Part shown: positions 109 through 35,260 of the stretch, one piece after another
How the letters are laid out: each line of letters opens with the position of its first letter
How positions within the stretch are numbered: position 1 is the first letter of the stretch
Virus record (IMG/VR): IMGVR_UViG_3300027896_000017
Span: 32,001-96,000 of that record
Source: a virus
Strand: one strand, 5' to 3'
Length of the DNA: 64,000 nucleotides
Position numbers and translations under genes: made by a program
The notes under the pieces: generated by a model
What the model saw: only the letters and a program-made list of their open reading frames with translations
What the model was told of the DNA's origin: nothing
Database searches by the model: none

Positions 109-2739
109 TTAACGCGTTTTAACAAGTAAAGTAATATCATAATAATTCCCAGCAATAAAAGCTGTTGCCGTAAGGAAGAAATTAATCTTATCATCAATGA
201 CCGCATCTCGTTCTATTTTATCCACTGTAAGTTTGGCTATAATGCCATCAGTAACCAATTTGGTGCAAACGATTGAACAGACCTGGCCTAAAAACTTAAA
301 AAGATTGGGATCGTTAATATTATAACGCCCAACATAAGGGGCTACAGCCGATCTTACCGTTTTAGCGCAAACGTCAGCCTGTTTAGTGATCGATCTTTCA
401 CGATACTGTACTGCGTCCATATTGGTTGTAAGATCATGCCTGGAGCGAATGGTGGGAGTTATAGTGGCATCCTGAATCATGATGTCTACGCCGCCTCCGC
501 CTATTTCATCAAGCTGAGCTTTTCTGAAATATGTATTAGTACCCAGCTGGATATTAGAAAGGCCAGGTATGCTGAAAGGCATATTAGTAAGCGACTGAGA
601 AACTATAACCCCACCATCCATACCACAAACTGAAGCGGCAATAAAATATGGAGGCACAAGCAAGTTTTCATTGCCATAACTGGCAGAGAACCATCCAGGC
701 CACACCATACCTACGCGCCTATTACCATATTTGATTGACCCTCCACGATTGGCCTGATCATCCTTGCGGCCACTCTCAAATTTAAAGGAAGGAGTAGTTA
801 CGGCATCACCAACATAATCAGTATTTACGGTAGTAACCACTGTAGGAGTAGACGTAACTGTAGCTGTGGTAATATAAGCAGTTACACTATAAATCTGAAC
901 TTTATCTCCAGTAGTGAGACCAGCGCTAAGAGGATTAAATGAACCATGGAGTGTTATTACTCCAGTATCTTTATTAATACTTCCGGTATCATTGCCCATA
1001 AGATAAATGTCATCTAAATCATAACAAATAACACCTATTCTTTCATGGGCTTCGTATGGCTCCGACTGTTCATCACAATAGGCGCCAATAATACCATTAA
1101 CGCCGGCATCAGTGGTGCCAAAGCAATGACTATAAACATCAAAAAGCTTAAGTTCCTCAAGAGCATTTTCATATTCAGTAGCAAGACTGTCTGAGGAATC
1201 AACATTGACTCCATAACAAACTTTACCACCGGAGCGGCCAAAAATAATATTCATCATAAAAGCCAATTCATTGCGAGGATCTATAGTCTGATCATCTGAA
1301 CGGACCCAAGCGTCACGTATATCTTTAACGCTGGTTATACGTTTTACAACATTATGTTCCTCAGAACGAATTGCCCTGAAATCGCTAATTATTTCAGTTG
1401 TTACCATAGGCTGCCATGCTTGAATAAAATCGCCAGTGGCAATGGGCGTATCGCCTGAGACCCCAGATCGATTCATAGCAGTTATGGTTGTAATAGTATA
1501 ATAAGTTCCATCAAATGAAATGGTGTCGATTGCATATATTCTTTTATAAGTAGTATCTCTTTCTTCTGCAGAACTTGCGGTATTAGCAGCAGTAATTATA
1601 AACAAATCACCCTTATTTAACGCAGGAACATCGTTATCGCTTGGCGCAGGTGTTGTAGAGGTCGTAGTGGGAAGAGTTATTGTCTTGGGAATTTTGAATG
1701 AAGTTTTAGTTGAAGAAACACTGGATATTTTAACACCAACATTGCCATGGAGTCTTTTTAAACCGTAACTCTGAGAAAAACCCACCAATCTGTTAATGCT
1801 GTAAGAATAAAGCTGAATAGTGGATCCAATACTGGTTGCAAAAGCCTTATATTTCAGATAATCACTATCAGCATGCCCAGCACCAAGGGCTTCTGTATTA
1901 AATCTTAAAGTATGTTTATTTATAATCGCGGTTACTGTTGCCAGTTCGGGATCATTAATAGATCCAGATATGGCAAGACTAGAAAGAGATATAATATCTC
2001 CAACCTTTACTTTAGCTGCGATAAAATCAGCAGAAGCATCGTATAACACTTCAGGATAATTAGGAAGATCATTACTGGCGCATCCAACAATAATCTTATC
2101 CCCATCAGTAATATCTACACTATAAGCTTTTGATAAAAATATTTTGGTTTCATCATTACCAATAGAACCTATAATGCCAACATCAAGCCAACTTGAGCCT
2201 GAATGTATAAAAACTCTTTGTCCAGGTTTCAATTGAGCGGTAACTATTGCTCCGCCAATAATTGAAATAATATTAAGACTTGTTGCTGATATGGTTACGT
2301 CACCAGTAGTAAGGACGGCATTATAATACGGAAGTATGGCCTGACAAGAACCCGCTACCTTTTCAGTATTGGGAAGAACATACATTTCATCTCTGGCTAT
2401 AGCCACACCATTAGAAGAAAAATCCGTTGAGTCCAAAGCAAGATCTATTTGACCAACAAGACTATTTGCATAAGCCGCAGGAGGGTAAAAATCAAATGCC
2501 CTTTTTCCAGCAATAGATTCATTATAAACTACTTTATTACTTGTCCCCCATAAAAGATCAGTAGTATGATCGGCATCGTCTTTCTGGCCAATGCCATAAA
2601 AAGTGCCCAACGATTGTTTGTTATATACGTCGTATGCGGTAGCCACAGCAACCGATGGTAAACTTTCAACTGCAACAGCTCCAGGCGAAACAACAAATTG
2701 CTGTCTGACTGATACGTTTGGACCCTGATAGGTACCCAT
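109..2739 (-). CDS. contractile tail sheath protein
   Basis: 876 aa; N-terminal Y..P.V.V.Q motif; C-terminal sheath-like region (RHDLTT...RERSITKQAD...DKINFFLTATAFIAGNYYDITL); AAGGAG RBS. Confidence 0.8.
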   Translation of the reverse strand: MGTYQGPNVSVRQQFVVSPGAVAVESLPSVAVATAYDVYNKQSLGTFYGIGQKDDADHTTDLLWGTSNKVVYNESIAGKRAFDFYPPAAYANSLVGQIDLALDSTDFSSNGVAIARDEMYVLPNTEKVAGSCQAILPYYNAVLTTGDVTISATSLNIISIIGGAIVTAQLKPGQRVFIHSGSSWLDVGIIGSIGNDETKIFLSKAYSVDITDGDKIIVGCASNDLPNYPEVLYDASADFIAAKVKVGDIISLSSLAISGSINDPELATVTAIINKHTLRFNTEALGAGHADSDYLKYKAFATSIGSTIQLYSYSINRLVGFSQSYGLKRLHGNVGVKISSVSSTKTSFKIPKTITLPTTTSTTPAPSDNDVPALNKGDLFIITAANTASSAEERDTTYKRIYAIDTISFDGTYYTITTITAMNRSGVSGDTPIATGDFIQAWQPMVTTEIISDFRAIRSEEHNVVKRITSVKDIRDAWVRSDDQTIDPRNELAFMMNIIFGRSGGKVCYGVNVDSSDSLATEYENALEELKLFDVYSHCFGTTDAGVNGIIGAYCDEQSEPYEAHERIGVICYDLDDIYLMGNDTGSINKDTGVITLHGSFNPLSAGLTTGDKVQIYSVTAYITTATVTSTPTVVTTVNTDYVGDAVTTPSFKFESGRKDDQANRGGSIKYGNRRVGMVWPGWFSASYGNENLLVPPYFIAASVCGMDGGVIVSQSLTNMPFSIPGLSNIQLGTNTYFRKAQLDEIGGGGVDIMIQDATITPTIRSRHDLTTNMDAVQYRERSITKQADVCAKTVRSAVAPYVGRYNINDPNLFKFLGQVCSIVCTKLVTDGIIAKLTVDKIERDAVIDDKINFFLTATAFIAGNYYDITLLVKTR

Positions 2740-2781
2740 GTTATTCTCCTTATAAAAAGTGAAAAATTTATCTTAAATTAT

Positions 2782-3720
2782 CTATTTCGTAGTATTGTTC
2801 GGAACTTCCATTTTTAAATGTAATGAACTCCATAATAAATTATATTCAATATTACTTTTTGATTCCGGCGCAACCCATGGTACAGGTTGATTATTTATAT
2901 CATGAGTTTCAAGTTTTAAAGTATGATTATCCGTTATTTCTTTTACAGTATATAATTGGGCATTATCATCATCTTTAAATCTAATATAATACCAGCCTTT
3001 ATTCAACTCTTGTTCAAGCAATCTTGGGTTATTATCAGGATCAATCCCAAAATTCTGAGTAGTATCGACAAGAACATCCGAATCTTTGATAACACTTCCT
3101 TTATCAGATAGTGGAGCATCTGTACTTGATTTATCAGTTTGATATATTGTAGCAGATTTCCACACTTTAGGTTCTCGAAGTGGCTTTATCCACCCCATTT
3201 GCAATGATACAAAAATCCTAACTGTTACTTCCCATCTTCGTATTTCAGTATCTTTAACCACAGGCACTTCAGGACCGATATCGAGATGGTATAAATTTCT
3301 AACAAAACTAAGATTATCTATAATACCATGTCTGTCGGCCTGAAGCATAACAGCTATATAATTGGCCAAACTTGAAGCTTCAGCACTTTCCTTGGAGCCA
3401 CATATTATGTTCATTGTACCATTGGCTATGGCAACATATTGTGGATTCAGGAAAGTATTGGCCTCGGCACCTTTTAAATTATCGAGAATCCTATTATCAA
3501 ATTGAAAACCTCCTCGTTCAACCACTACAAATGGGGCACTCATTGGTTTTTCATTATCTATTACAAATGGAGCGCATATCCTGATAAAACTCTTTCTATC
3601 ATCAGGATCCCATCTATACTCGGATGGAGTTATTTCCGGATTCTTAAAAATCCATTGTAAATAACTTAATAGGCCATCCATTATGGCTGAAACAGGAAAA
3701 TTTATCATTGGCGCTGGCAT
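2782..3720 (-). CDS. putative tail completion/terminator protein
   Basis: Immediately upstream of the sheath gene; PFVVVER motif typical of tail-completion proteins; ATG 3720 preceded by AAGGGA. Confidence 0.4.
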   Translation of the reverse strand: MPAPMINFPVSAIMDGLLSYLQWIFKNPEITPSEYRWDPDDRKSFIRICAPFVIDNEKPMSAPFVVVERGGFQFDNRILDNLKGAEANTFLNPQYVAIANGTMNIICGSKESAEASSLANYIAVMLQADRHGIIDNLSFVRNLYHLDIGPEVPVVKDTEIRRWEVTVRIFVSLQMGWIKPLREPKVWKSATIYQTDKSSTDAPLSDKGSVIKDSDVLVDTTQNFGIDPDNNPRLLEQELNKGWYYIRFKDDDNAQLYTVKEITDNHTLKLETHDINNQPVPWVAPESKSNIEYNLLWSSLHLKMEVPNNTTK

Positions 3721-3807
3721 TGTATTATCCCTTGATTCTTTCAAAGAACCATATGATCATGTTTAATTTTATTATATCATTCATGGTAAACAATTTCAAC
3801 AAGGTAT

Positions 3808-6800
3808 TTATTTTGTTTTGATTAATAAATCTTTTATATAAAAAAACGCATCTTTAGCTGGATAAAATGCCTGATCATTTTTTTTAACAAACTCTTGCCC
3901 CCATGGTTCAAATTGATTTGATCGCAAAAGATTTTTTGATTTTAATAAATTAGTATTGTAATGATATCCAAATAATTCAGGATTAGATAAGCCCCATAAT
4001 ATTATACCTGGAATAATCTGAGGCATGGTGTTTACCATATGTTGAAGAAAATTATCCACTGAAATCCATGTATAGCATTTTGAAATTTTATCTTGCAAAT
4101 CTTTTAATGAATAATCAAAACAATATTCGTCCATATTATCTAATGGTTTTTCATTTTTAGAACCTATTTGAACAAGTTTATATCCAAGGGGTTTTATCAT
4201 TGCGATTAATTCATTCCAATATGGATAACTCTTGGGGTGATCATCTTTGTGACTATAAGGACTTATTATTATTTCATTTTCAGAACCATATTTAATGATA
4301 TCTTTTGATCCAAATTTGCCGCGAACAGGCTCTCCAGATAATTGATAGATTTGTTTATAAGCCCACGCAATACCTTTGTTCCAATTATTATTTGCCATAA
4401 ATTTATAAATATTATAGTTATCTATATTTTTAAGCAACATTTTAGATTCAGCTATTGAGGCCAATTTAATATCTGGAATGTCTTTAAAAACTTCAGGAAA
4501 AGTAACAAAGAAAATATGAGTTTTATTTTTATATTTTTCAAAATATAATGGCAGGACACTTTTAAAAGCAAAATGATCGCCAAGACCATGTTCTAATACA
4601 ACAAAAGAATAGTCATTTAATTTAACCCCCGACTCTGTCATTTTTTTTAAAAATACGCGCTCGTCATTGGATGCATATTCTTTTGTCTTATTAATATAAC
4701 TATTGTCTCTATTGCCTCCGGTATTATCGCGCAAATGCCACGTAATAGCGCTTGGATCAAAAATATTTGTATAACCCTTTTTAGTCATATTGTAAGTTAA
4801 CATCGTTTCTTCTCTATGGCATATTGGCGATAATTCACGCGAGTATTCAGCTATAGATTTTCTATAAATAAATGTGCTGTGAAGATGATCGACAATTTTA
4901 GGCTGAGAATTTTTAGGATACATATACCACTGTTCGTTTGCTCCAAGAAAAATATCTTCAATTTTATTAGATGCTATAGAAGACGGCGACATAATACCAT
5001 TTCCATCTATTACGCATCCCCCGACAGCGCCCGTCTTATCGGTTACATGTTTTAATAGTTTTTCAAGTACATCATATTCGGGAACCCCATCGTCATCAAC
5101 TCTCCACAAAAATTCTGTTTTAGCTTTTTGGATTGATGATATATGATTTGTAACCCAACTGGTACTATTAGAAAAAACAACTTCCCATGATATTCCCTTA
5201 GCGGATATAATTGAAAAAATATGGGAATATAATGGATCTTTTCTTAAATCTTTATGTTCGCCATCATCATAAATTATTAAATGTTTGGGCTTAACAGTTT
5301 GATTTGCTATAGCCATTAAAGTCAATGGTAGTGTGGTATGATATCTATTTTTAGTTAAAATTACACAAGTTACATCAGTATTTGTTTTCTTATATTTATT
5401 TCTTAAAATTTCTAAATTTCTTTTAAAAATGTCGCTCCATCCAGGTAAATTATTAACTGTAGCTTCGGCTTCATGATATAAGGGAAATTGAGTAGTCCAG
5501 CGACCATTTTCTATATATGGCTTATCATCAATCGGAACTCTAATTAATTCTAAGCCAACTAATTTAACCCTCATGCAATAATCGATATCTTCACTCGATC
5601 CTGGAGAAAATATTTCATCTAAAAGCCCAACAGAATTGATTGTTCTTTTAGATATCATTACACAGAAAAAAATAAGAAAATCAATATCTATTTCACTGTT
5701 ATGTACACAAACAGTCCCAGTAACACCGCATTTATCATTATTTATAAACGGCTCATTCAAACATTTTAACCAACGATCTTTTTCCCAATAATCAAGAATT
5801 CTGCAATCATTATTTAATAAAACAACATAATCCCCAGATGAAGATGTTATGCCAGTGTTAATGGCTTTAGGATAACCTATCGGTTCTGAAAAATCCAATA
5901 ATTTAAAAGAAGGCCCCAGCGATTTTACATATTCTTGCGTGCCATCAGTACAACCATTGGCAACTACTATTATTTCTATACTTTCATTTAATGTGGTATT
6001 TTTGATTATACTTTCACAACATGGTTTAAGGCATGTTTCTAAATTATTAAACGTAGGTATAATAATGGAAAATTTTATGTTATTTTTTACAAATTTATCA
6101 TCAATCCATTTCATTAATATAAGACTAAAACCGTTATCTTGAGGTGTTTTGTATATTATATTATTTTCGGTTAAGTATAAATATTCAAATCCTGGAAAAT
6201 CTTTTTCTGTTAATCTATGCAATTTATGATGTGGACCATATCCGCCAGGCGTTTCATTATATGGTGTAGTGGTAAGCAGACATTTACAATGTTGTTTTAG
6301 TCGTTGTGCCAATTCTTTACCGTTTTCAATATGTTCTAAAAATTCAAAAGCTATGATCGTATCATATTGTTCAAACTTAAAATCATTAACATTGGCTTTT
6401 TGAAATTTTACACCAGGAATATCTCCAAAATTTTTTATAGCATAATCTATAATATTTTGATCATAATCAATTCCGGTATAATCTAAATTTGGAATATCTT
6501 TAAAAAATCTTAATCCATATCCGTAACTACAACCTAATTCTAAAATCTTGGATCCATAAATATTTCTACTACACCATTCATATCTAATCTTTTCTTTTGG
6601 ATTTATATTATCATTTTTTCCAAATACAGCTCTTTCTCCATTATTTCCAAATTTAAATTGATCATTATATCGATCTTGTAATATTTTACGATTTCTTTCA
6701 ATTATATCATTCCAATTTGGAATTTCATGACAAGTAATACCAGCTCTATGATATAAAGGAAAAGTACTAATCCATTGCCCATTTTTAATATAAGGTGTTT

Positions 6801-24743: not shown

Positions 24744-24842
24744 AGTATTCCTTGGGGGTTAAAGAGGCCCTATTATTGAATATATATATAATATACCTTT
24801 AAACCATCTTTTCTTCAATATGTTATTTTAAAAGTAATTAGG

Positions 24843-24855
24843 AAATAACTATAAT
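24843..24855 (+). promoter_or_regulatory. putative phage promoter AAATAAC-TATAAT
   Basis: Recurs upstream of plus-strand units (35342, 41751, 52769, weaker at 26176); contains a -10-like hexamer. Confidence 0.55.
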
Positions 24856-24906
24856 AGTGAGATTTAATTTAGACTGATCATCTTTAACTAAACAAAGGAG
24901 TTTAAT

Positions 24907-25656
24907 ATGGGAAAGCTGCATGAACACATTGCGGTGGAAAATGACATCAAAGGAACGCTATCGAAAATTATAGCAGAAGCCGCGACTACGTTCACCAAAA
25001 AAGACACGCATTTTGATGAGTCTTCAAGGCTTTATACTCCGTTTGTAGATGGAGATAAAGATATTCCAGAAACTGAAGTAACGCATATGGTTACTACAGT
25101 AAAAGACAAGCTTGACTATGTATTTCCATATCTGGCCAAAAACCTAGATCATACATATCAGAAGGAATTGGCCAATACGGTAGCAAAAGCTGATGTGGTT
25201 CTGGAGAACGGGACGGTTTTGGCAGAAAAAGTGCCGGTGCTTGTTCTGGTTCAGCTGGAGAATACATTAGAAGGCTTCAGAAAAAATGTTCTGGAAATCA
25301 TTCCCACATTGGATCCCAAGATTGATTGGGAACCTGATACGTCAGCTAAAAATGTGTGGAAGACCCGCAATGCCATCAAAACAGTCAGAACGAAGAAAAT
25401 AAATAAGCCAGTAATCGTAGTGCCGGCTTCAGACAAGTTTCAGGCACAAGGGCAATTGGTGCCTGAAGACATCCCTGTGGGCGAATTTGTCAAAACAGCT
25501 CGCACAGGAAGGTTCTCACCTCTTCAGAAAAGTGATATTCTTGCTAAAATGGACGTAATCATAGCTGCTGTAAAAAAGGCTCGCGCAAGGGCCAATGATA
25601 CGCCTATTGAGAACGTAACAATTGGCAAGAAGATTGTGGATTTTATTCTTGGTTGA
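24907..25656 (+). CDS. conserved hypothetical protein (family recalled from actinobacteria and phages)
   Basis: KLHEHIAVE...ANTVAKADVV...VPV..LVQLE...RTKK...PASDKFQAQ...EDIPVG...AVKKAR..AN pattern recognised from memory; AAGGAG RBS. Confidence 0.7.
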   Translation: MGKLHEHIAVENDIKGTLSKIIAEAATTFTKKDTHFDESSRLYTPFVDGDKDIPETEVTHMVTTVKDKLDYVFPYLAKNLDHTYQKELANTVAKADVVLENGTVLAEKVPVLVLVQLENTLEGFRKNVLEIIPTLDPKIDWEPDTSAKNVWKTRNAIKTVRTKKINKPVIVVPASDKFQAQGQLVPEDIPVGEFVKTARTGRFSPLQKSDILAKMDVIIAAVKKARARANDTPIENVTIGKKIVDFILG

Positions 25657-25663
25657 ATATTAA

Positions 25664-25760
25664 TTTATATATTGCTAGTGTAGGATAGTCGGGAGGCTTT
25701 GAAGTGGGGGCGCTAGTTTCCATGGAGCCAAAAGTGGAATACCGATCTGCAATATATAAA
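25664..25760 (+). ncRNA. 23S rRNA L1-stalk (H76-H78) mimic RNA
   Basis: GTGTAGGATAGTCGGGAGGCTTTGAAGTGGGGGCGCTAGTTTCCATGGAGCC...GAATACCGATC aligns with the 23S L1-stalk head (E. coli, as recalled: GUGUAGGAUAGGUGGGAGGCUUUGAAGUGUGGACGCCAGUCUGCAUGGAGCC...AAAUACCACCC); closed by a 12-bp TTTATATATTGC/GCAATATATAAA stem. Confidence 0.85.
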
Positions 25761-25892
25761 ATAATATAATTGTATAAAGATTGACAATGCGAACTTATAA
25801 CTTCGCATTGTTATTATAGACACAATAGTCATATTTATATTCAGATTAATGAATAAAACTCAGGCTATTATGTGTCCCATGCTAAAAACAAA

Positions 25893-26051
25893 AATGGTCG
25901 ATTTTGGTCTACAAAATCGTTATCCAAGCCCAATCACCGGTTCAAATCCGGTCTGGCTCTCTAAGAACATCTATATGATGTTTTTAAAGAGCCGGTAGCT
26001 TAGAGGTCAAAGCGGGGTGATAACAGTAAAATACGATTTGTTGTAACCATT
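25893..26051 (+). ncRNA. circularly permuted tRNA-like RNA (YrlA/bacterial Y RNA-like)
   Basis: T-arm ACCGG-TTCAAAT-CCGGT (25936-52), acceptor CTGGCTC/GAGCCGG capped by a hairpin, then TA + D-arm GCTT-AGAGGTCA-AAGC; ends pair as AATGGTCGA/TTGTAACCATT. Confidence 0.75.
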
Positions 26052-26099
26052 ATCTTCTATGTAGCTCATCCTATAAAGATGATAACTATATAACTGACC

Positions 26100-26136
26100 G
26101 CCTGGGGGGAAGGGTATTCCCCCTGGGTATTTTTTT
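26100..26136 (+). terminator. intrinsic terminator
   Basis: GCCTGGGGGGAA/TTCCCCCTGGGT 12-bp stem followed by a T7 tract. Confidence 0.8.
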
Positions 26137-26238
26137 ACCTTTTTTTATAAAACGTTATTTTAAGGTATTTTATGGTATAACTATATTGGAGAGGGTATAT
26201 CCGTACCTGATCCATAAACCTTTTTCCAGGGAGTGTAT

Positions 26239-26421
26239 ATGAATCCGGTTACAGCGCCCGCAGGAGCATTTGGTAAGGAAGTTATCAATAGCGTCATTTT
26301 TGGCGCTATCGCAGGAATTCTGATGGGGGTCACAGGGAGTGTCGTGACCAAAGCTTTGCAGCCCAGGGTTGACAAAGCAAATCAGGCCACCGGCAAGCCC
26401 GCCGGTGATACCAAGAATTAA
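26239..26421 (+). CDS. small membrane protein (60 aa)
   Basis: AGGGAG RBS; hydrophobic GxxxG segment VIFGAIAGILMGVTG; followed by a terminator. Confidence 0.6.
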   Translation: MNPVTAPAGAFGKEVINSVIFGAIAGILMGVTGSVVTKALQPRVDKANQATGKPAGDTKN

Positions 26422-27319: not shown

Positions 27320-30300
27320 CTACCACGTATAATTCCCCGTAACGTACTCGGGGATAGGGTGATTTAACGGATTGCTGATTGATTTCCAACTCTGTGTGGT
27401 TCCTTCTTCAAGAACTTTTGCAATTCTATTGTGGGCCAATCTGGCTATCCAGTCCTCAGATGATTGGGCTTTTGCCTGAATTCCAGTAGGAGTTAAAAAT
27501 GGCTCATGTTTAATTCTGTCTTTAAAAACTTTGATTCTTTTGAATCCCCTTTCATCAAGTTTATTAATAACACTTTCATCTATTTTAGTATTCGCTTTAA
27601 ATGGCCCATAATTTTGAGCCAGATGATCCCCTTCAGTATCATAAATACTTTCTTCTTTTAAATTATTATTATTGTAATGTTCAACAGTCGTTAAAGGCGC
27701 GACGTCACCTTTTAAATAATTAGGATGACTGCCTGGTTCAAGTATTCTTGTGGTATTAGTTAATCCTCTGACTACAGTTTCAATATCGCGTTTATCCAAT
27801 TTACCTTCCATCAATTCATTTATATGATTAACAAGAAATTTTTGAGTTTCAGGCATACCTTTATATTTTAAAATATCATGAGCCGACGGAGTGCCAGTGC
27901 TTAACAGATCGCCGGATTTGACTAAAACACCAGGTTTAACTAATGGTTGATTGTTGGCATCAATATATCGTATTTCTTGTTTTTCTCCATTATCCAAATG
28001 AACATCCCATCCGCCAATGGGAGATTTTTTAATATCTTTTACAACACCATCGATACTCGCCAATGTGGCTTTGTCAGGATTATTTTTAGTAAATCGTAAC
28101 GTATCAAATAATTGATCAAATACTGTAGATCCTGGTTTTTTCTGAATTTGTAATGCGCCTCCGGTATGGAATGCTTTCATCGCCATGTTTAATGAAGGCT
28201 CAGTGATCGTGTGGGCTGAGATGATTCCAATATTATCTCCAATATTAGGTTTTTTTCCATCATAATTTACACCATATGAAAACGAAGAAAAGCCGTCTCC
28301 AGGAGTTGGGTCCGTTATTGGAGACTGAACATAAACTTTTTTAATTCCATGTTGGCTTAATTTATTCGCCACATCAGATGTTACAATATCATTTCGTTTT
28401 GCTATAATTTTTCCATTATCAGCTTTTGCGTCTTGCGCAAGGAACCTGTTTAATATGCCTTTATTGTCATTAATATCATATTCAAAACCTTTATTATCAA
28501 CCGGCTCATCGTGAGTTATTCTGGTTTCATAAATTGAATTAATCAAATCTTTTGTAAGCCATCCAGGCTTTGAAGAAGAAATTGATTTTTTAATATTACC
28601 ACCACGGGCCCCATGTGCAGCAGACCAATATCCAAAAGTATCCAATCCTTCAGAATAAGATTTAGTAATAGGCAGAGGTATAGGTCTATCTTCCGCATCA
28701 GTAACTATTCCAGGCATTAAAGCAATAGCGCTTATATTATCAATACCTTTAGTTCCTCCTGATTTCAAGCCAACGCCTATCATGGTATTTTCGCCATATT
28801 TATTTTCAAGTTCTTTTCTACCCTTCATTGTCATGGAACTGAACGCTTTAACTATAGACATGGGGTCTTTTTTATCTGAATTTTTTTCCGCCTCTCTTAC
28901 AAGAGAATCTCTTAAATCTCTATCAACAACCGTATCTGAAACACCAAGGGTGAAGCCAAAAATAGTAGAATAGTTATTTCCAACATCTTTAATTTTATCG
29001 GCTAATCCTAAAGCAATTTTTCCATTGTGTTTTTTGGTGACATCTCTAATCCACGATTCTACATTTTTACCATTCAATTCGATATCGTATTTTTTTAAAT
29101 CATCAGGAACCACACTGTTAATTTCATGCATACCAAAGGGAGCTTTTTTATCTCCAACCGTTACGGAGTCGGCATAGGTAAATTTATTCTGTTTAAAAGC
29201 ATTACGAGCCTGTTCCAGCGTATCAAATTTTAGACCAGTATCCTGTCCACCTTTACCCTTGGAGACAAGCCAGCTGCCTACAATCATGTCCATTTGAGGT
29301 ACATTAAGAACTGAATCGTATCCAGTTTTAAGCATAGAGGCTGAGGGTTTCATTTTTTCAGCTTCGGCAATGGCTTTGGGGGAAATGGGGACGTGTAACT
29401 GAAAGGTATCAAAAACAGGAATTCCATTTGAACACATAAACGTCATTGGCCCCGGAACGGTAATGTCATATAAACATTGTTTTTTATCAATAAAATTAAC
29501 TTTATCGGCGGTAAGCCATGTTATAGTATTATTATTAACAATTTCAATCCATTCACTTGGCAAACAATTATTAGACATAGAAATTATTTTTTTAGACATT
29601 AATCTCCCAAGCAAACCTTTTCGACAAGCCTTTCTCATTGAATCTCGCATTATTGGATCTTTAATAAATTTTTCGCATTTATCATACAAATCTTTATTCC
29701 AAGGCACCCTATCTACCATATTAATTGTTCTATTGGTAGCCATTGATGAAGATAAAAATTTTCTATATATTAAAGATTTTTCTTTATTCTTAAATATTAA
29801 TTCTTTGCCCCTTATATCAATAGAAGACATGCCAATATTATAATATGAATTATTATTTTTACTATAATAACTTATTAAACATGATATATTTAAACTTTTA
29901 CACATAGTTAAAATTTCGTCGGCAAGACGCAAAGATGTTGTTGCATATCTAAATTTAAAAGATCCATTACTATTAGAAAAGCCTATACTTCCGTCGGTAT
30001 CAAGCATTCCAGATAACAAACCAAGTTTAAATTCTTTAGGGGAAGACATATAACATGGCGGCAAGTGTTTGTTATAACAATTATGCCCAATTATATTTCT
30101 TAAATTTTCTGCCAAAGAAATATTTGATAATGATATATTTTTTCCAATATATTCATTTTTACTATTACAAATTTTCTTTTTATATTCATTAGACCAAAAT
30201 GTTGGTTCTGTTTTTAACAATTTTATAATATTAGATTTAAAAGAATTTTCAATATCTTGATGAATGGTCGCTATGTCGATTTTTTTTCCACTAGTACTAC

Positions 30301-33300
30301 CGTTTCCTATCATGATTCCTAAAAAATATCCAAATTCTTTTGTTAATTCTACACTATCAACACAATTAATAGACATTTTGTTTCTTTTAGAATAATTATT
30401 TAATAAAATATGTGTCACTGATTCCTCAATATTAAGTTGTTTAACTTTAGGTATTTGTTTTCCTACAATTTGTTTAGGGCTAATTTTTTCAAGATTCCAA
30501 GTATTAGTATTTAAATACACTGCACTATGATCGTCAGATAATATTAATGAATTTTTATCAGACATAGTAATTATACATGAGTTTAAATTTGGATGAATAG
30601 AAAAATGAGATACCGGTACAGATATGATTTGTTTTGTTTTATTGTCGATTGTTATAATTTTTATTCCTTTAGGAACCTCATATTCAATATTATTGCTATT
30701 TGTTAGCCGTTGAGTTCCCTCGATTCGGGGGAAATCTTCAATATTAATATGTATAATCTTTTCGCTGTCATTAATAATTAATCTATTTAATGTTGGCATA
30801 CTAACAATCCTTTCTGATAAGTATTTAATTGGATTATAATAAATATACTTATTTGAAAGGAATTGTGCAAGATATTTTTCATGTAAATTATTTAATTTAT
30901 TTCTATCAAAATCTCCGCCAAAATGAATTATTTTCTCATTCTTAATTTCATGTTTAATAATATTAAAATTAACTATAACAAAGACACTTTCCAACCCGCT
31001 ATCTCCGTCAAAATCCCCTCCAAAGTTTTTACTTACCACTACTCCTGGCACCTCTATAGATTTACCTTCTGTCAATATCGGTTTAAATGCAGTCATATTC
31101 CATCTGTGTAATGATGGCGCTCTGTTAGCTATTATTAATCGCTCATCAGCCACAACGTCCCTAGCTCTTTCTGCAACAGAAGTTTTATCTTCTATTTGTT
31201 TTTGTGCTTCAAGAGGCGTATACCCCCAACTCACCATTTTTTTCATTATAAAAGGTCTGAATATTTTAGAAGCCATTTCTTTAGGTATACCCATCTGATC
31301 TCCACCCAAATCTGGATTTAAAATAATAGTGGAGCGACCAACAAGATCCTGGCGTCTTTCTAAAACCTTATCTTGAAAGAAGCCTTCTTTTGATTGATTA
31401 GAACCCGCAATCTGTTCTACAAATCCTTTTTTATTTTTAATTCTATTAAGATATGAAGTTGGCGCTTGAAGGCCGGTAACAGATTTTAAGTCGTTATATA
31501 ACTGCCCCCTGGCTTCGGCTAATTGTAAGTTTTTAATATCCTCATTAGGGATTGATTTATCAAGTTGAGATTTTAAATCTTTTAACGCATTGGCTGTATG
31601 AGCTGTCTGTTGATACAAATCATTTATATCAGACATTATAATGGCGCCATCTCCAGCCATAGGTATCACCGGTCTGTATTTAGAAGGAGTGACCAATACG
31701 TTAGAAACTAAATAATCGGCAGGCTTCATTTTATGTTCTTTTAGTGCCCTTAAATATTTAATTTTTTTATTAAGTTTATCTATTTTTGTTGAATTTCTTT
31801 CATTTTTTAAAGCTTCAGTAGCTTGGTCTAAAGTTTCATTTACATCAATTGCTCCCAACATCGTCTCAAGGGCAGGTCCACCTGAAATGGAATCAGGAGT
31901 TCCAGGGCTAACTAGTTGTCCCGTTTTTTTATTAATAAATTGTTTGCCAGTAATGACGCCTTCCAATTTTATTAAAGGCATATCTAAAAGATTGGCTGCG
32001 GCATTCGCGGCAATTGGATTAAGTGTTTTTTCTGGTAATGAGAAATGTGTAAAATGATCACCAAAAATTCCACCAGCTTTAACAGGGTCAAACAGCCCTT
32101 CTTTAATGGGGGCCATGTCTTTTAAACGATATGTTTCCGTAGGATTTAATAATTCTCCGCGAGACCGCTCCAATATATCCTTATCAGTCAGGGGTTTTAA
32201 AATAAAATTTTTCCCTTTTTGTTGAACATTAATTCCAGAGCCTTGCATATTAGCAAGAAGCTTATCCCACACAAAAGCTTTATTAGGCGGAGGCAAAGTT
32301 TGACCTGTTTCCATAGCTTTCCAATATTCATCATTGCGCTGCCCCTTTATTGAAAACATTTCTCTTAAATTTTCTTTAGCCCCACGAGCAAGTAGTGCGG
32401 CCGTTTCCATGCGACCAATATTTTTACCACCAGTTTCGCCACCAGATGCGGGCTGCTCATTAGAATCGTATTCATCACGGTATCTGGCTGAATATTTATG
32501 ATCTATTTTATGTTCTAGTTTAAGTATATGAGCAAAACCTGTTGCGACAGGATTTTTGTATGGCTGCTTAGTATCTGGATCGATTAATATATCCTTATCG
32601 GAAACTCCAGCTTCTTTCATATCTTGTAAAATTTTTCTAGAATTATCTTCTGGTGAAAAATTTCTAATAGGATATTGCTGTCCGGTTTTCCAGGCAATTT
32701 TACCAGCAGCGGATTCTAATAATTGCGAGGTATTGATTCTATTAGAAACTCCTATAGGACTCATGGTTAAATCAATATTTTTACCAGTTGTTGGATTAAA
32801 TGGCATTTCATTATCCGGAACTATCTTTGCTATTATATGTTTATTGCCATGCAATCCCGATATTTTATCGGCAACCTTTAAAGGTTCTTCTGTTTTAACG
32901 CTGACAACAACACTATTGCCTGATTTTTTTACATCTGTAACCGTTCCAATATGATCGTTATCCCAACGAATGGCATTGTCAGCCATATCTCTTTTCAATT
33001 GCTTGTCAAGTCTTCCAATAGCAATATCATCAGCAGTAGGAGATTTGCGCTCCAAATGAGCAATAACAATATCATCACGTTTTACTGTTTGGCCAGGAAG
33101 AATAACACCTTCTTTATCTAATTTTTTCATGTTTTCTGAGGTCAGTTCTTCAGGATAATAAGCCTTATATTTATTTGCAGAAAATACGCCTTTTGATGTA
33201 CGTTTAGTTTTTAAATCATATATATGTTGAGATGTTAATTTTTTTGCAGCAGACTCAGACATGATTGCAGAATCTTCATAATTGTAACCTTTATAAGGCA

Positions 33301-35260
33301 TATAGGCCACATGAAGATTGGCGCCCAAAGCCATCTGACCATCTTTGGTAAAATTATTATCAGCTAATATATCATTAACTTTTACTTTATCACCAACTTT
33401 TACTAAAGGTTCATTATGTAAATAACTTTCAGAATTTAATGAAAAATTATGATAAACAGGAATGACATATTCTTTGCCCGATTTATCTGAAAGAGTAATT
33501 TTATTAGGAGTTATTTTTTTAACTTCCCCGTCTATGGGGGACTTAGGAATTGCTATAAGACTGGCCAATTCTTCGCCAAAAGGTTTACCCTTATCATTAA
33601 TAATTTTAAATAAAGGTTTTTCACGATTTTTTAATGATATGGCTTGCTCTTGCATTTTAGAGGCTGTTAATCCACGGTTGCCTTGAATGGAATCAAGAAA
33701 TGGGATTGAGTTGGCTGAAGTATCGAACATACCCATAGGACTGGCTATTATATAATCTACGTCGCCTTTTTTAACTTCGCCCAATTTGCCGGCTCGCACT
33801 ATTTTAATTTTATCTGAAATCGGATTAGGCTTCTTGTCGCCCATATTATTAAATTGAAATTGATCTGGAAAAGCCACATTTTTATTATGAACATCAATGG
33901 GTCTTAAAAGAACATATTCACCATTGGGCTTCATAAATTTAGAATAAAGATCGTTTCCAACTTTGATAGTATCATAAGAAGTATGCACAGCAATCCCAAT
34001 GTTACCACCTTCAGGCGTATGCAATGGGTCTACAAAGCCAACTTCACTATTTGATATCTGTCTGGCCTCATTGGTCACTGCGTTAGCGGAACCTATACCG
34101 CCTTCGCCCATCACGGTAAATTTAGTACCTTCTCCAATAATAGCCATTGGATTTGTTTGATTGGGAGGGCTGGATAATTGGCTATTGGTAATTGTGCCTA
34201 TAGTATAAGCATTAAATGTTTGAGGACTTAAAGATTTATTAATAGAACGATTTCTATTTAACTTGAATTTAATGTTATTAACAATCTTTCCGGCATTTTT
34301 AATTAAATTCTCTTTAATGTGATCCTCTACATCATAAAAAGATTTAAATACTAATGCTTCTCTATCATCGCTATCTACGACGCCGCGATTTATATCTATA
34401 ATTTTTTTAGAAGCATCGAGTATGGCGTCTTTATTTACATTGGTATATGGCTTACCAAGAGTGATCTGTGTAACATCCGGATCTAATTTGGTGGCAAACA
34501 ATCTGGTTTTAATTTGTTCAGAAACATTTAATGGATTTAAATCTTTAGCTGGTTGTTTACCGAACACCGCTTCATAAAATTTTTTTTGATTGACGTCTTG
34601 CTGGCGAGTATAGGCCATTGAGTTAATATCGAAAACATCCTGACCCCATGAATTAATTAGTTCTTTATCGGTGATTCCAACAGATCTTAAAGCATTAATT
34701 AAAGGCACATGCTTTGTGCCATAGGCCATTGAGAATATTTTTCTTTCAGGGTCAAATTCAATTTTAAAATTATTATTAAATCCTCGCGCAAAATCTATTG
34801 TTTTGTCTACATTAAAAAAAGAACTAATTTCACCGTTCTTTTGATATTTAGTATAGACACCAGGTTTTAATCTGGCTTGTTTTATAAATTGATATTCATT
34901 CCCTCCGATTAAAAACGTCCCCCTGTCAGTCAGCTTGGGGATATCTGCTATTTTCATGTTATTAACTTTATCAATGACTTTATTGGTTTTTTTATCTATT
35001 AATTCTAAATCAGCCCTGATATCATTGGACCATAATTGGCCTTTATTACGCACATCTTTTTGTTCTTCTATATCTTTATTATCATACTTTTCAACAATTT
35101 TAACATTATTGGCTTTTAATTGAATATTAGGATCGTCAATGGAATTTAAAATTTGCCCAACTGTAGTTTTTACAGCAGTATTAATAAGAATATTATTTCT
35201 TACATCCTGATCTAAATTTAATAATTTATTTAAAATCTGTTGAGAGGATTCGGTTGACAT
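27320..35260 (-). CDS. rpoBC: DNA-directed RNA polymerase beta-beta' fusion, intein-containing
   Basis: beta motifs TPEGGNIG, NRGLTASKMQEQA, GYNYED, DKISGLHGNK, KLEHKIDHK, GGKNIGRME; beta' motifs RRQDLVGRS, NRAPSLHR, GGDFDGD, GARGG (bridge helix), EPSLNMAMKAFHTGG (trigger loop). Confidence 0.95.
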   Translation of the reverse strand: MSTESSQQILNKLLNLDQDVRNNILINTAVKTTVGQILNSIDDPNIQLKANNVKIVEKYDNKDIEEQKDVRNKGQLWSNDIRADLELIDKKTNKVIDKVNNMKIADIPKLTDRGTFLIGGNEYQFIKQARLKPGVYTKYQKNGEISSFFNVDKTIDFARGFNNNFKIEFDPERKIFSMAYGTKHVPLINALRSVGITDKELINSWGQDVFDINSMAYTRQQDVNQKKFYEAVFGKQPAKDLNPLNVSEQIKTRLFATKLDPDVTQITLGKPYTNVNKDAILDASKKIIDINRGVVDSDDREALVFKSFYDVEDHIKENLIKNAGKIVNNIKFKLNRNRSINKSLSPQTFNAYTIGTITNSQLSSPPNQTNPMAIIGEGTKFTVMGEGGIGSANAVTNEARQISNSEVGFVDPLHTPEGGNIGIAVHTSYDTIKVGNDLYSKFMKPNGEYVLLRPIDVHNKNVAFPDQFQFNNMGDKKPNPISDKIKIVRAGKLGEVKKGDVDYIIASPMGMFDTSANSIPFLDSIQGNRGLTASKMQEQAISLKNREKPLFKIINDKGKPFGEELASLIAIPKSPIDGEVKKITPNKITLSDKSGKEYVIPVYHNFSLNSESYLHNEPLVKVGDKVKVNDILADNNFTKDGQMALGANLHVAYMPYKGYNYEDSAIMSESAAKKLTSQHIYDLKTKRTSKGVFSANKYKAYYPEELTSENMKKLDKEGVILPGQTVKRDDIVIAHLERKSPTADDIAIGRLDKQLKRDMADNAIRWDNDHIGTVTDVKKSGNSVVVSVKTEEPLKVADKISGLHGNKHIIAKIVPDNEMPFNPTTGKNIDLTMSPIGVSNRINTSQLLESAAGKIAWKTGQQYPIRNFSPEDNSRKILQDMKEAGVSDKDILIDPDTKQPYKNPVATGFAHILKLEHKIDHKYSARYRDEYDSNEQPASGGETGGKNIGRMETAALLARGAKENLREMFSIKGQRNDEYWKAMETGQTLPPPNKAFVWDKLLANMQGSGINVQQKGKNFILKPLTDKDILERSRGELLNPTETYRLKDMAPIKEGLFDPVKAGGIFGDHFTHFSLPEKTLNPIAANAAANLLDMPLIKLEGVITGKQFINKKTGQLVSPGTPDSISGGPALETMLGAIDVNETLDQATEALKNERNSTKIDKLNKKIKYLRALKEHKMKPADYLVSNVLVTPSKYRPVIPMAGDGAIIMSDINDLYQQTAHTANALKDLKSQLDKSIPNEDIKNLQLAEARGQLYNDLKSVTGLQAPTSYLNRIKNKKGFVEQIAGSNQSKEGFFQDKVLERRQDLVGRSTIILNPDLGGDQMGIPKEMASKIFRPFIMKKMVSWGYTPLEAQKQIEDKTSVAERARDVVADERLIIANRAPSLHRWNMTAFKPILTEGKSIEVPGVVVSKNFGGDFDGDSGLESVFVIVNFNIIKHEIKNEKIIHFGGDFDRNKLNNLHEKYLAQFLSNKYIYYNPIKYLSERIVSMPTLNRLIINDSEKIIHINIEDFPRIEGTQRLTNSNNIEYEVPKGIKIITIDNKTKQIISVPVSHFSIHPNLNSCIITMSDKNSLILSDDHSAVYLNTNTWNLEKISPKQIVGKQIPKVKQLNIEESVTHILLNNYSKRNKMSINCVDSVELTKEFGYFLGIMIGNGSTSGKKIDIATIHQDIENSFKSNIIKLLKTEPTFWSNEYKKKICNSKNEYIGKNISLSNISLAENLRNIIGHNCYNKHLPPCYMSSPKEFKLGLLSGMLDTDGSIGFSNSNGSFKFRYATTSLRLADEILTMCKSLNISCLISYYSKNNNSYYNIGMSSIDIRGKELIFKNKEKSLIYRKFLSSSMATNRTINMVDRVPWNKDLYDKCEKFIKDPIMRDSMRKACRKGLLGRLMSKKIISMSNNCLPSEWIEIVNNNTITWLTADKVNFIDKKQCLYDITVPGPMTFMCSNGIPVFDTFQLHVPISPKAIAEAEKMKPSASMLKTGYDSVLNVPQMDMIVGSWLVSKGKGGQDTGLKFDTLEQARNAFKQNKFTYADSVTVGDKKAPFGMHEINSVVPDDLKKYDIELNGKNVESWIRDVTKKHNGKIALGLADKIKDVGNNYSTIFGFTLGVSDTVVDRDLRDSLVREAEKNSDKKDPMSIVKAFSSMTMKGRKELENKYGENTMIGVGLKSGGTKGIDNISAIALMPGIVTDAEDRPIPLPITKSYSEGLDTFGYWSAAHGARGGNIKKSISSSKPGWLTKDLINSIYETRITHDEPVDNKGFEYDINDNKGILNRFLAQDAKADNGKIIAKRNDIVTSDVANKLSQHGIKKVYVQSPITDPTPGDGFSSFSYGVNYDGKKPNIGDNIGIISAHTITEPSLNMAMKAFHTGGALQIQKKPGSTVFDQLFDTLRFTKNNPDKATLASIDGVVKDIKKSPIGGWDVHLDNGEKQEIRYIDANNQPLVKPGVLVKSGDLLSTGTPSAHDILKYKGMPETQKFLVNHINELMEGKLDKRDIETVVRGLTNTTRILEPGSHPNYLKGDVAPLTTVEHYNNNNLKEESIYDTEGDHLAQNYGPFKANTKIDESVINKLDERGFKRIKVFKDRIKHEPFLTPTGIQAKAQSSEDWIARLAHNRIAKVLEEGTTQSWKSISNPLNHPIPEYVTGNYTW
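29408..31000 (-). mobile_element. intein with LAGLIDADG homing endonuclease (531 aa; Ser1 ... Phe-Asp | Thr+1)
   Basis: Interrupts DFDGD|TFQLHVP; block B SDDH; LAGLIDADG motifs FLGIMIGNG and LLSGMLDTDGS; block F/G LYDITVPGPMTFMCSNGIPVFD. Confidence 0.9.

Follow-up and report, generated by a model that had tools for sequence, protein, structure and literature searches.

The stretch of DNA analysed here, referred to as the window, is 64,000 nt in length and corresponds to positions 32,001–96,000 of the IMG/VR virus record IMGVR_UViG_3300027896_000017 (hereafter G000), which is 116,767 bp long with a CheckV completeness of 65%. A gene coding for a DUF7873 protein is followed, on the same strand, by a run of structured RNA elements (Table 1), and the ORF list holds no ORF of 40 aa or more from the end of this gene at 25656 to the next structured elements. 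The first element of the run is a copy of the L1 stalk of bacterial 23S rRNA (helices H76, H77 and H78); since the DUF7873 stop codon adjoins it, co-transcription of the two is likely.

A Y-RNA-like candidate lies 140 nt 3' of the L1-stalk RNA, its score being below the YrlA gathering score of 69; YrlA-type Y-RNA-like RNAs are reportedly tRNA mimics. A terminator-like hairpin, recognised as a pattern match, would end the DUF7873/L1-stalk/Y-RNA-like unit as a candidate terminator. Two more hairpins were predicted between the two RNAs, the first of which has a terminator-like score on the minus strand as well. Elsewhere in the window, on the minus strand, a 2,646-aa ORF (27320–35260) carries fused Rpb2 (RNA polymerase beta-like) and Rpb1 (beta'-like) domains and is split by an intein with a LAGLIDADG domain.

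Table 1. Position and supporting basis of the features found at the L1-stalk RNA locus of the window.
Feature	Position (nt)	Strand	Basis
DUF7873 gene, 249 aa	24907–25656	+	Pfam PF25283, E 1.3e-62; ORF list; context
H76-like closing helix, 5' strand, AT-rich	25657–25678	+	MFE fold; Rfam alignment; junction-anchored duplex
9-nt junction TGTAGGATA	25679–25687	+	TGTAG[G/C]ATA in 8/11 family members
Platform residue G25680, putative equivalent of 2112	25680	+	Alignment mapping
T-loop 1, AGGATA, putative equivalent of 2114–2119	25682–25687	+	Alignment mapping
H77, 5' strand GTCGG, pairs with 25742–25746	25688–25692	+	RNAalifold; pair counts
GA linker H77–H78 (J1-2), part of putative uL1 contact region	25693–25694	+	11/11 members
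H78: base GGC/GCC, internal loop, 8-bp upper stem, GCTA loop	25695–25729	+	Rfam; pair counts
Loop B with T-loop 2 (TGGAA, 25735–25739)	25730–25741	+	TG.AATACC invariant in family
Platform residue G25737, putative equivalent of 2169	25737	+	Alignment mapping
H77, 3' strand CCGAT	25742–25746	+	RNAalifold; pair counts
H76-like closing helix, 3' strand	25747–25767	+	Rfam alignment; MFE fold; junction-anchored duplex
Hairpin between L1-stalk RNA and Y-RNA-like RNA	25783–25812	+	
Hairpin between L1-stalk RNA and Y-RNA-like RNA	25819–25876	+	
Y-RNA-like (YrlA-type) candidate tRNA mimic	25908–26047	+	Rfam YrlA 31.8 bits, E 5.2e-05; context
Terminator-like hairpin and T run (candidate)	26100–26138	+	Consensus scan: 12-bp stem, 7 GC pairs, then ATTTTTTTAC

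Identity and fold of the L1-stalk RNA

A cmscan of the region 25500–26100 returned a match with LSU_rRNA_bacteria at 25653–25792 (+) with a score of 58.5 bits (E 8.5e-17; gathering score 50), corresponding to positions 2112–2259 of the 2925 of the model. The Rfam alignment spans H76, H77 and H78 in their canonical arrangement (LSU model 2112–2216), whereas the part past the stalk is low-confidence filler. The match with the L1-stalk head of bacterial 23S rRNA, proposed in an initial annotation of this DNA, was thus borne out, together with the prediction that only H76–H78 would be hit: indeed, when blastn was run against 50,697 GenBank phage records, only nt 39–104 of the query (window 25678–25743), that is the head, matched, with 79–83% identity to 23S rRNA. 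No match with T-box or RNase P RNA was found in the 601-nt Rfam scan up to E 10.

No other rRNA sequence flanks the element, as had been annotated. Comparison of ±1.5 kb with four 23S references gave 66 aligned nt and no further rRNA homology, while in the positive control, a true 23S rRNA in the viral contig L086, 1,932 nt were aligned; the window element is not embedded in a full 23S rRNA gene. A search of the whole 116.8-kb record with the LSU family gave no match, this search being insensitive to fragments because the L1-stalk element was missed too. Rfam scans of the whole window (1–64000), both at the gathering threshold and at E ≤ 0.01, likewise reported nothing and missed the element. 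Speed filters conceal short rRNA-domain copies from routine annotation, as is evident from the E value obtained with the 601-nt scan, and annotation pipelines, with Rfam silent on the whole window, overlook the element.

The predicted fold had an MFE of −35.2 kcal/mol versus −24.4 ± 3.6 kcal/mol for shuffled sequences (z −3.05), with one of 200 shuffles as good. In the Rfam alignment the AT-rich stem threads onto all 18 pairs of H76 with one 1-nt insertion, and the closing helix counts ≈20 pairs, interrupted by a single A·A mismatch and a single bulged U; a helix of this size fits the H76 pairs, so that the length of H76 results preserved and its sequence rewritten. The 12-bp AT-rich stem originally described (25664–25675/25749–25760) is real, but rather than replacing H76 it is the core of this ≈20-bp, H76-length helix.

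When the core was compared with the closest 23S found, which is of Syntrophales type, 59 of 69 positions were identical, and the changes falling in H77 among the ten differences were compensated. The H77 combination GTCGG/CCGAT was present in none of the 97 real 23S sequences parsed. That the differences from bacterial rRNA keep the pairing could also be confirmed against Salmonella 23S, both in H77 (GGTGG/CCACC versus GTCGG/CCGAT) and in the arms of H78.

In 23S rRNA, T-loop 1 (2114–2119) has the core AG..A and T-loop 2 (2167–2171) the core UG..A, and the 2112:2169 platform, reported as purine:purine in 578 of 591 rRNAs, stacks on the G19:C56 elbow of tRNA (Lehmann et al. 2013, PMC3664808). 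The T-loop and platform positions were mapped onto the window by alignment, and we infer from this mapping that both cores are present, in loops predicted to interlock, and that the platform is purine:purine, being formed by G25680 and G25737 (G:G). As to uL1, domain I of the protein is described as contacting H77, the linker joining it to H78 and the H78 base, loop B being the site of domain II (PMC5689012). All of these regions (H77, J1-2, H78 base and loop B) are present in the window element, which is therefore a putative uL1 ligand.

Independent assembly and host hint

An 8,633-nt contig produced by a different assembler matches positions 24800–26400 end to end with no differences, the second-assembler contigs coming from the single public run listed for this DNA, probably that of the source sample; no RNA run was listed for it. 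The element is thus not chimeric, because an independent assembly covers the site without differences, and the concern about an assembly chimera raised in the initial annotation is answered. Bacterial 23S sequence occurs in the same sample on its own contig of 77 nt, which differs at two positions in the head and continues differently.

When one genome per species was examined (185,579 species), the H78 motif of the window was found in 20 contigs: 19 carry Syntrophales, Smithella, Syntrophaceae or delta-proteobacterial labels, and the remaining one is Nitrospiraceae. A 23S fragment with a tail characteristic of those Syntrophales/Smithella-type genomes was detected in the same sample. The expectation that the best match may point to the host held, H78 being of Syntrophales/Smithella type, and this sequence likeness weakly suggests a host, or an rRNA donor, belonging to that clade.

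A family of free-standing copies

To look for the same cassette in other phages, as had been recommended, a covariance model (R1) was built from the window, its phage relative L041 and two rRNAs, and IMG/VR was scanned with five degenerate core motifs, R1 serving to score contigs; the motif scans demand exact core motifs, and the family count is therefore an undercount. Besides the window, 17 IMG/VR contigs were R1-positive, namely one true 23S, three ambiguous contigs and 13 free-standing ones (28–222 kb, plus one of 4.8 kb), the latter representing ten distinct sequences: L041, L095, L096, L102, L097 (=L099), L100, L101, L103, L246 (=L244, L247) and L248. The true 23S (L086, Rfam 2,214 bits), the contigs G001/L085/L092, L093 and L245, and the duplicates L099, L244, L247 and L084 were dropped from the family count, and four more contigs (L094, L098, L104 and L105) matched the motif pattern and not R1. 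The score of the window (108.1 bits) is high by construction, as it is a training member of R1, and the ten others scored 51.6–102.1 bits, L041 being a training member too.

The window combines an R1 match, non-rRNA flanks and a viral contig, as required for membership. Non-rRNA flanks were found in the members tested, L246 and L248 being classed by contig position and unrelated flanks. In the 12 member records searched (a set to which G009 and G010 do not belong) a single copy was present per record, internal to the contig, and G003, a record of 45.7 kb, is complete and carries terminal repeats. The closing helix adjoins the junction in every complete copy, and varies in both sequence and length.

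An exact 27-nt scan of viral contigs gave no matches. No free-standing copy was detectable in GenBank phages by blastn with four members, each of which returned either no match or the same 15 records, 23S-annotated or short and unannotated, aligned over the head only. In five putative host genomes (four Syntrophales-type and one Nitrospiraceae) R1 gave a single match each, and therefore no free-standing copy is present in those five. A G at the position equivalent to 2169 was also considered as a mark of a phage subfamily and rejected: a metagenome scan returned at least 118 stretches, and all the 80 loci fetched were true 23S with rRNA flanks, hence no free-standing copy occurs among the matches listed.

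Conservation of the fold

In the alignment of the 11 sequences (A6), 96.2% of the cells were paired, versus 37–49% with the partners slid by 1–3 columns, the structure being somewhat favoured since A6 was fitted to the model. Double changes were observed in 18 of 22 pairs, and none of 500 shuffles reached the observed values. All H77 cells are paired in the family, and all eight pairs of the H78 upper stem are doubly changed. The case of L097 and L246 is instructive in this respect: their flanks cannot be aligned and the element is ≈80% identical, with a compensated change in H76 (GGTAG/CTACC versus GGTTG/CAACC) and a rebuilt H78. Read at the level of sequence, this pattern indicates evolution under structural constraint within phages, and not only repeated capture of rRNA. 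Covariation could partly come from differing source rRNAs, because H77 varies in real 23S as well (20 of 97 are not GGTGG/CCACC).

The invariant columns read T..AG..ATAG..GGGAG ... TG.AATACC. The T-loop cores AG..A and TG..A are kept in 11 of 11 members, as are the two junction-proximal G-C pairs of H77, the GA linker and the base of H78, whose middle pair covaries; the platform is purine:purine in ten of them, with U:A in L103 as the exception. Part of the invariance of GGGAG, GGAG.C and G.AATACC stems from the searches themselves, most of whose patterns demanded these motifs; TG.AATACC was a requirement in three of the four member-finding scans. Two patterns placed no constraint on T-loop 1, and in the last scan, based on T-loops only, GGGAG was present in five of five new matches though not required. 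On its 3' side, the internal loop of H78 is different in two members, L246 and L248.

The original view that structure has been under selection here, and that the element is not just a random piece of rRNA, thus finds support in the 11 covarying copies, in the better conservation of the element with respect to its flanks and in the second assembly.

Genomic context

A co-oriented tRNA is located within 3.5 kb in seven of the 11 copies, the distance downstream being 34 nt in L096, 35 nt in L102 and 44 nt in L041, with tRNAs at 0.5 kb in L097, at 1.6 kb in L100 and L103 and at 3.2 kb in L246. As for the four remaining copies, the tRNA lies 1.2 kb away on the other strand in L095 and 23 kb away in L248, and none is present in G008 and in G000. 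Since most members lie in tRNA clusters, they are probably transcribed and trimmed together with the tRNAs; ncRNA genes may, for their part, sit among tRNAs merely for common expression or processing.

The DUF7873 gene lies among co-oriented tRNAs in eight of 12 other loci scanned, and in six of the 12 a sub-threshold YrlA match follows it by ≈50–250 nt (L002, L003, L006, L009, L010 and L013, at ≈3300–3560), as also in L041 (3387–3504), with 24–36 bits versus a gathering score of 69. DUF7873 and the Y-RNA-like RNA seem to form a module conserved in phage tRNA islands and, the DUF7873 loci elsewhere being tRNA-rich, the window locus can be regarded as a tRNA-island-type region without canonical tRNAs. 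The tRNA island that holds the DUF7873 gene in L009 also contains a phage tmRNA (5043–5399, +, 89.6 bits).

That the L1-stalk RNA is tied to DUF7873 was considered and rejected, as R1 was positive in two of 81 sources (80 DUF7873 loci and the window) and DUF7873 was present in two of ten L1-bearing records, with a working positive control. The idea that DUF7873 is uL1-like was also rejected: its AlphaFold model (mean pLDDT 92.1), made of long helices and a long beta hairpin, had no match at E ≤ 0.001 in a PDB search, as distinct from a direct comparison with uL1. About 400 DUF7873 relatives are present in IMG/VR, and a single-protein search for such relatives confirmed none. Pfam analysis of ten neighbouring ORFs gave no partner in common. 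A Ribosomal_L1 gene was found in none of the eight records G000–G007, seven of which are family members, the control being positive in 14 of 14 genomes.

A second rRNA centre in some of the phages

Proteins uL11 and uL1 are encoded in one operon. The H43/H44 centre, to which uL11 binds, was modelled (R2) from 11 true 23S sequences, and 13 L1-bearing records were searched with this model. A full-length match (30.4 bits, E 1.2e-5) was found in G006 (L249 967–1033, +), 670 nt upstream of its own L1 copy, and a partial one (25.6 bits, E 1.2e-4) in G009 (L250 1501–1546, −); G004 gave a weak match (E 0.03) and G000 none. Judged by these matches, two different rRNA centres are copied by some L1-bearing phages, the H43/H44 copies of G006 and G009 being free-standing as well.

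Comparison with known RNAs

The L1-stalk fold itself is familiar, but not in the role of a separate gene of a virus. To our knowledge, no rRNA domain is known as a separate viral gene, and no description of a phage L1-stalk RNA was found in the literature searched, main texts only. With respect to the 23S L1 stalk (Rfam RF02541, ≈2112–2216), the phage RNA is alike in helix lengths, 9-nt junction, T-loops, platform and the H77/H78-base/loop B surface, but it is phage-encoded between protein genes, outside any rRNA, and has a G:G platform and, in place of H76, an unrelated AT-rich helix with a free end and no H75/H79 junction.

A further likeness concerns the uL1 operator, which is not known to contain H76 or the T-loops. 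This leader of rplK–rplA (L11 operon) is likewise an off-ribosome RNA mimicking the uL1 site of 23S and, as far as it is described in PMC10931766 and PMC5689012, is a short irregular stem-loop that precedes rplK or rplA and lacks the long loop B. The phage RNA is, on the contrary, a complete stalk with no r-protein gene adjoining, and in the window it lies downstream of the DUF7873 gene and not in the 5' UTR of rplK or rplA. T-box Stem I and RNase P modules share the AG..A/UG..A T-loop core and the platform for the G19:C56 elbow, and function without H78, according to the account given in PMC3664808. They also lack the uL1 surface and are located inside a riboswitch or a ribozyme, whereas the phage RNA is homologous in sequence to rRNA and not alike in motif only.

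As to niche, the phage RNA resembles the RNAs of phage tRNA islands (tRNAs, tmRNA and YrlA-type mimics), all of them found in co-oriented ncRNA clusters of large phages; those are tRNAs or tRNA mimics, while the L1-stalk RNA mimics the ribosomal partner of tRNA. A virus with L1-stalk components is also represented by the Microcystis jumbo phage PhiMa05, reported to encode the uL1 and uL11 proteins (PMC13157829), but there the component is protein, whereas in the present case the RNA component occurs without its protein.

Possible function

As the fold is preserved across the copies of other phages, the RNA is probably used away from the ribosome. The reading we lean towards, though we stop short of calling it probable, is that 25657–25767 is a phage gene for a stand-alone L1-stalk RNA (H76–H78), a member of a rare RNA family found in large uncultured phages, which would act through host uL1 and by docking on tRNA elbows. 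The RNA would fold autonomously in the infected cell and be bound by uL1 of the host (no uL1 gene was found in the phage records searched), thus giving a small off-ribosome L1-stalk particle. Such a particle would dock on the elbows of tRNA-shaped RNAs, either phage and host tRNAs or, at this locus, the Y-RNA-like mimic from the DUF7873/L1-stalk/Y-RNA-like unit, and the role we judge most likely for it would be to hold, stabilise or sequester these RNAs, with titration of uL1 as a side effect. In trans, a free L1 stalk would be expected to have only weak affinity for tRNA. The location in tRNA clusters and the preservation of the T-loop platform speak for elbow docking, while the kept H77, H78 base and loop B, together with the retention of H78, speak for uL1 binding as part of the function.

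Titration could instead be the function itself, an option that we consider rather unlikely: the RNA would soak up free host uL1, leading to derepression of rplK–rplA and/or to new ribosomes devoid of uL1, and thus reshaping host translation, and the elbow platform would be retained solely as a requirement of the fold. The lack of a phage uL1 gene in the eight records points this way, as does the copying, in some of the same phages, of the centre that binds uL11, the operon partner of uL1. The parts of the stalk bound by L1 (H77, GA linker, H78 base and loop B; PMC5689012) are all kept, H78 is present in 11 of 11 copies though the RNase P and T-box modules described in PMC3664808 do without it, and the affinity of uL1 is reported to be higher for rRNA than for the operator of its own mRNA, from which new rRNA frees it (PMC10931766). 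However, the benefit for the phage is not evident, one gene copy would face abundant ribosome assembly, the 2112:2169 pair is purine:purine in ten of 11 members though uL1 binding should not need it, and this reading does not account for the link with tRNA clusters.

Less likely again is that the RNA is a decoy, whose imitation of the L1 stalk diverts a host factor, a toxin, a defence nuclease or a translation factor that touches the stalk. The part of the ribosome that it copies faithfully is exposed and mobile, and the second exposed centre (H43/H44) copied in G006 and G009 would suit a general mimicry of the ribosome surface; against this, we know of no defence system or toxin targeting H76–H78, and no defence-related gene was linked to the element among the neighbours scanned. 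A passive role in cis, with the stable domain ending ncRNA/tRNA transcripts, punctuating their processing or blocking nucleases, no action in trans and an incidental rRNA origin, seems improbable to us. It would agree with the short distance (34–44 nt) to a downstream tRNA in three phages, with the T-rich run after the closing helix in L097, L246 and L248 and with the window copy placed directly after a stop codon, but any hairpin would suffice for it, and intact T-loops, platform and uL1 surface amid freely changing helices would have no explanation. Finally, that the element is neutral debris or an artefact, a host 23S scrap acquired by recombination or by an assembler join, is hardly credible and already largely refuted: the contig-end copies of G001, L093 and L245, rRNA-identical or rRNA-like, do look so, and the window H78 is nearly that of Syntrophales 23S, but the second assembler gives the same continuous sequence, the core is 10 of 69 positions off the closest 23S with H77 compensated and H76 entirely different, and ten other free-standing copies covary within the same boundaries.

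A selected stand-alone L1 stalk in unrelated phages would imply an off-ribosome use of the tRNA-gripping, uL1-binding module. If confirmed, it would add a new type of molecular mimicry in phages, beside tRNAs, tmRNA and Y-RNA-like mimics, and structural and single-molecule studies would gain a minimal L1-stalk construct of natural origin; it may also bear on the investment of large phages in translation parts. A broader view, possible but doubtful at present, is that large phages use off-ribosome copies of tRNA-handling rRNA domains (the L1 stalk and, in some, the uL11-binding GTPase centre) with host r-proteins as particles that capture tRNAs, mimics or translation factors, thereby re-routing tRNA traffic, ribosome assembly or translation-linked defence. 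Viral RNAs of this kind, serving to take over the host, would form a class that has so far gone unrecognised.

Flanking complements and contig-end copies

In L096 (4673–4900, −) and L102 (225–565, −) a 9-nt perfect complement, GGAAACGTA / TACGTTTCC, flanks the L1 copy together with ≈100 nt upstream of it. The bracketed region directly precedes a tRNA-Arg gene, and a larger RNA was considered possible; for L096 this idea was rejected, the 228-nt fold being no better than shuffles (z −1.42).

The copies set aside because of their position at contig ends deserve a separate mention. G001 (L092) is a 42.8-kb phage contig (CheckV 90%) ending inside the L1-stalk sequence (1–100, −), with a copy identical to Smithella-type 23S and non-rRNA sequence upstream; either the assembly broke at a very recent capture or the contig end is a chimera. 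In L093 and L245 an rRNA-like H76 is found at the contig ends. L093, 3.9 kb in length, codes for a cystovirus-type P4 packaging NTPase (PF11602, E 2.1e-22) at 536–3888 and ends in a 122-nt piece of the 23S L1 stalk on the strand opposite to the P4 gene, and is thus either an rRNA chimera or the product of recombination between a dsRNA phage and host rRNA.
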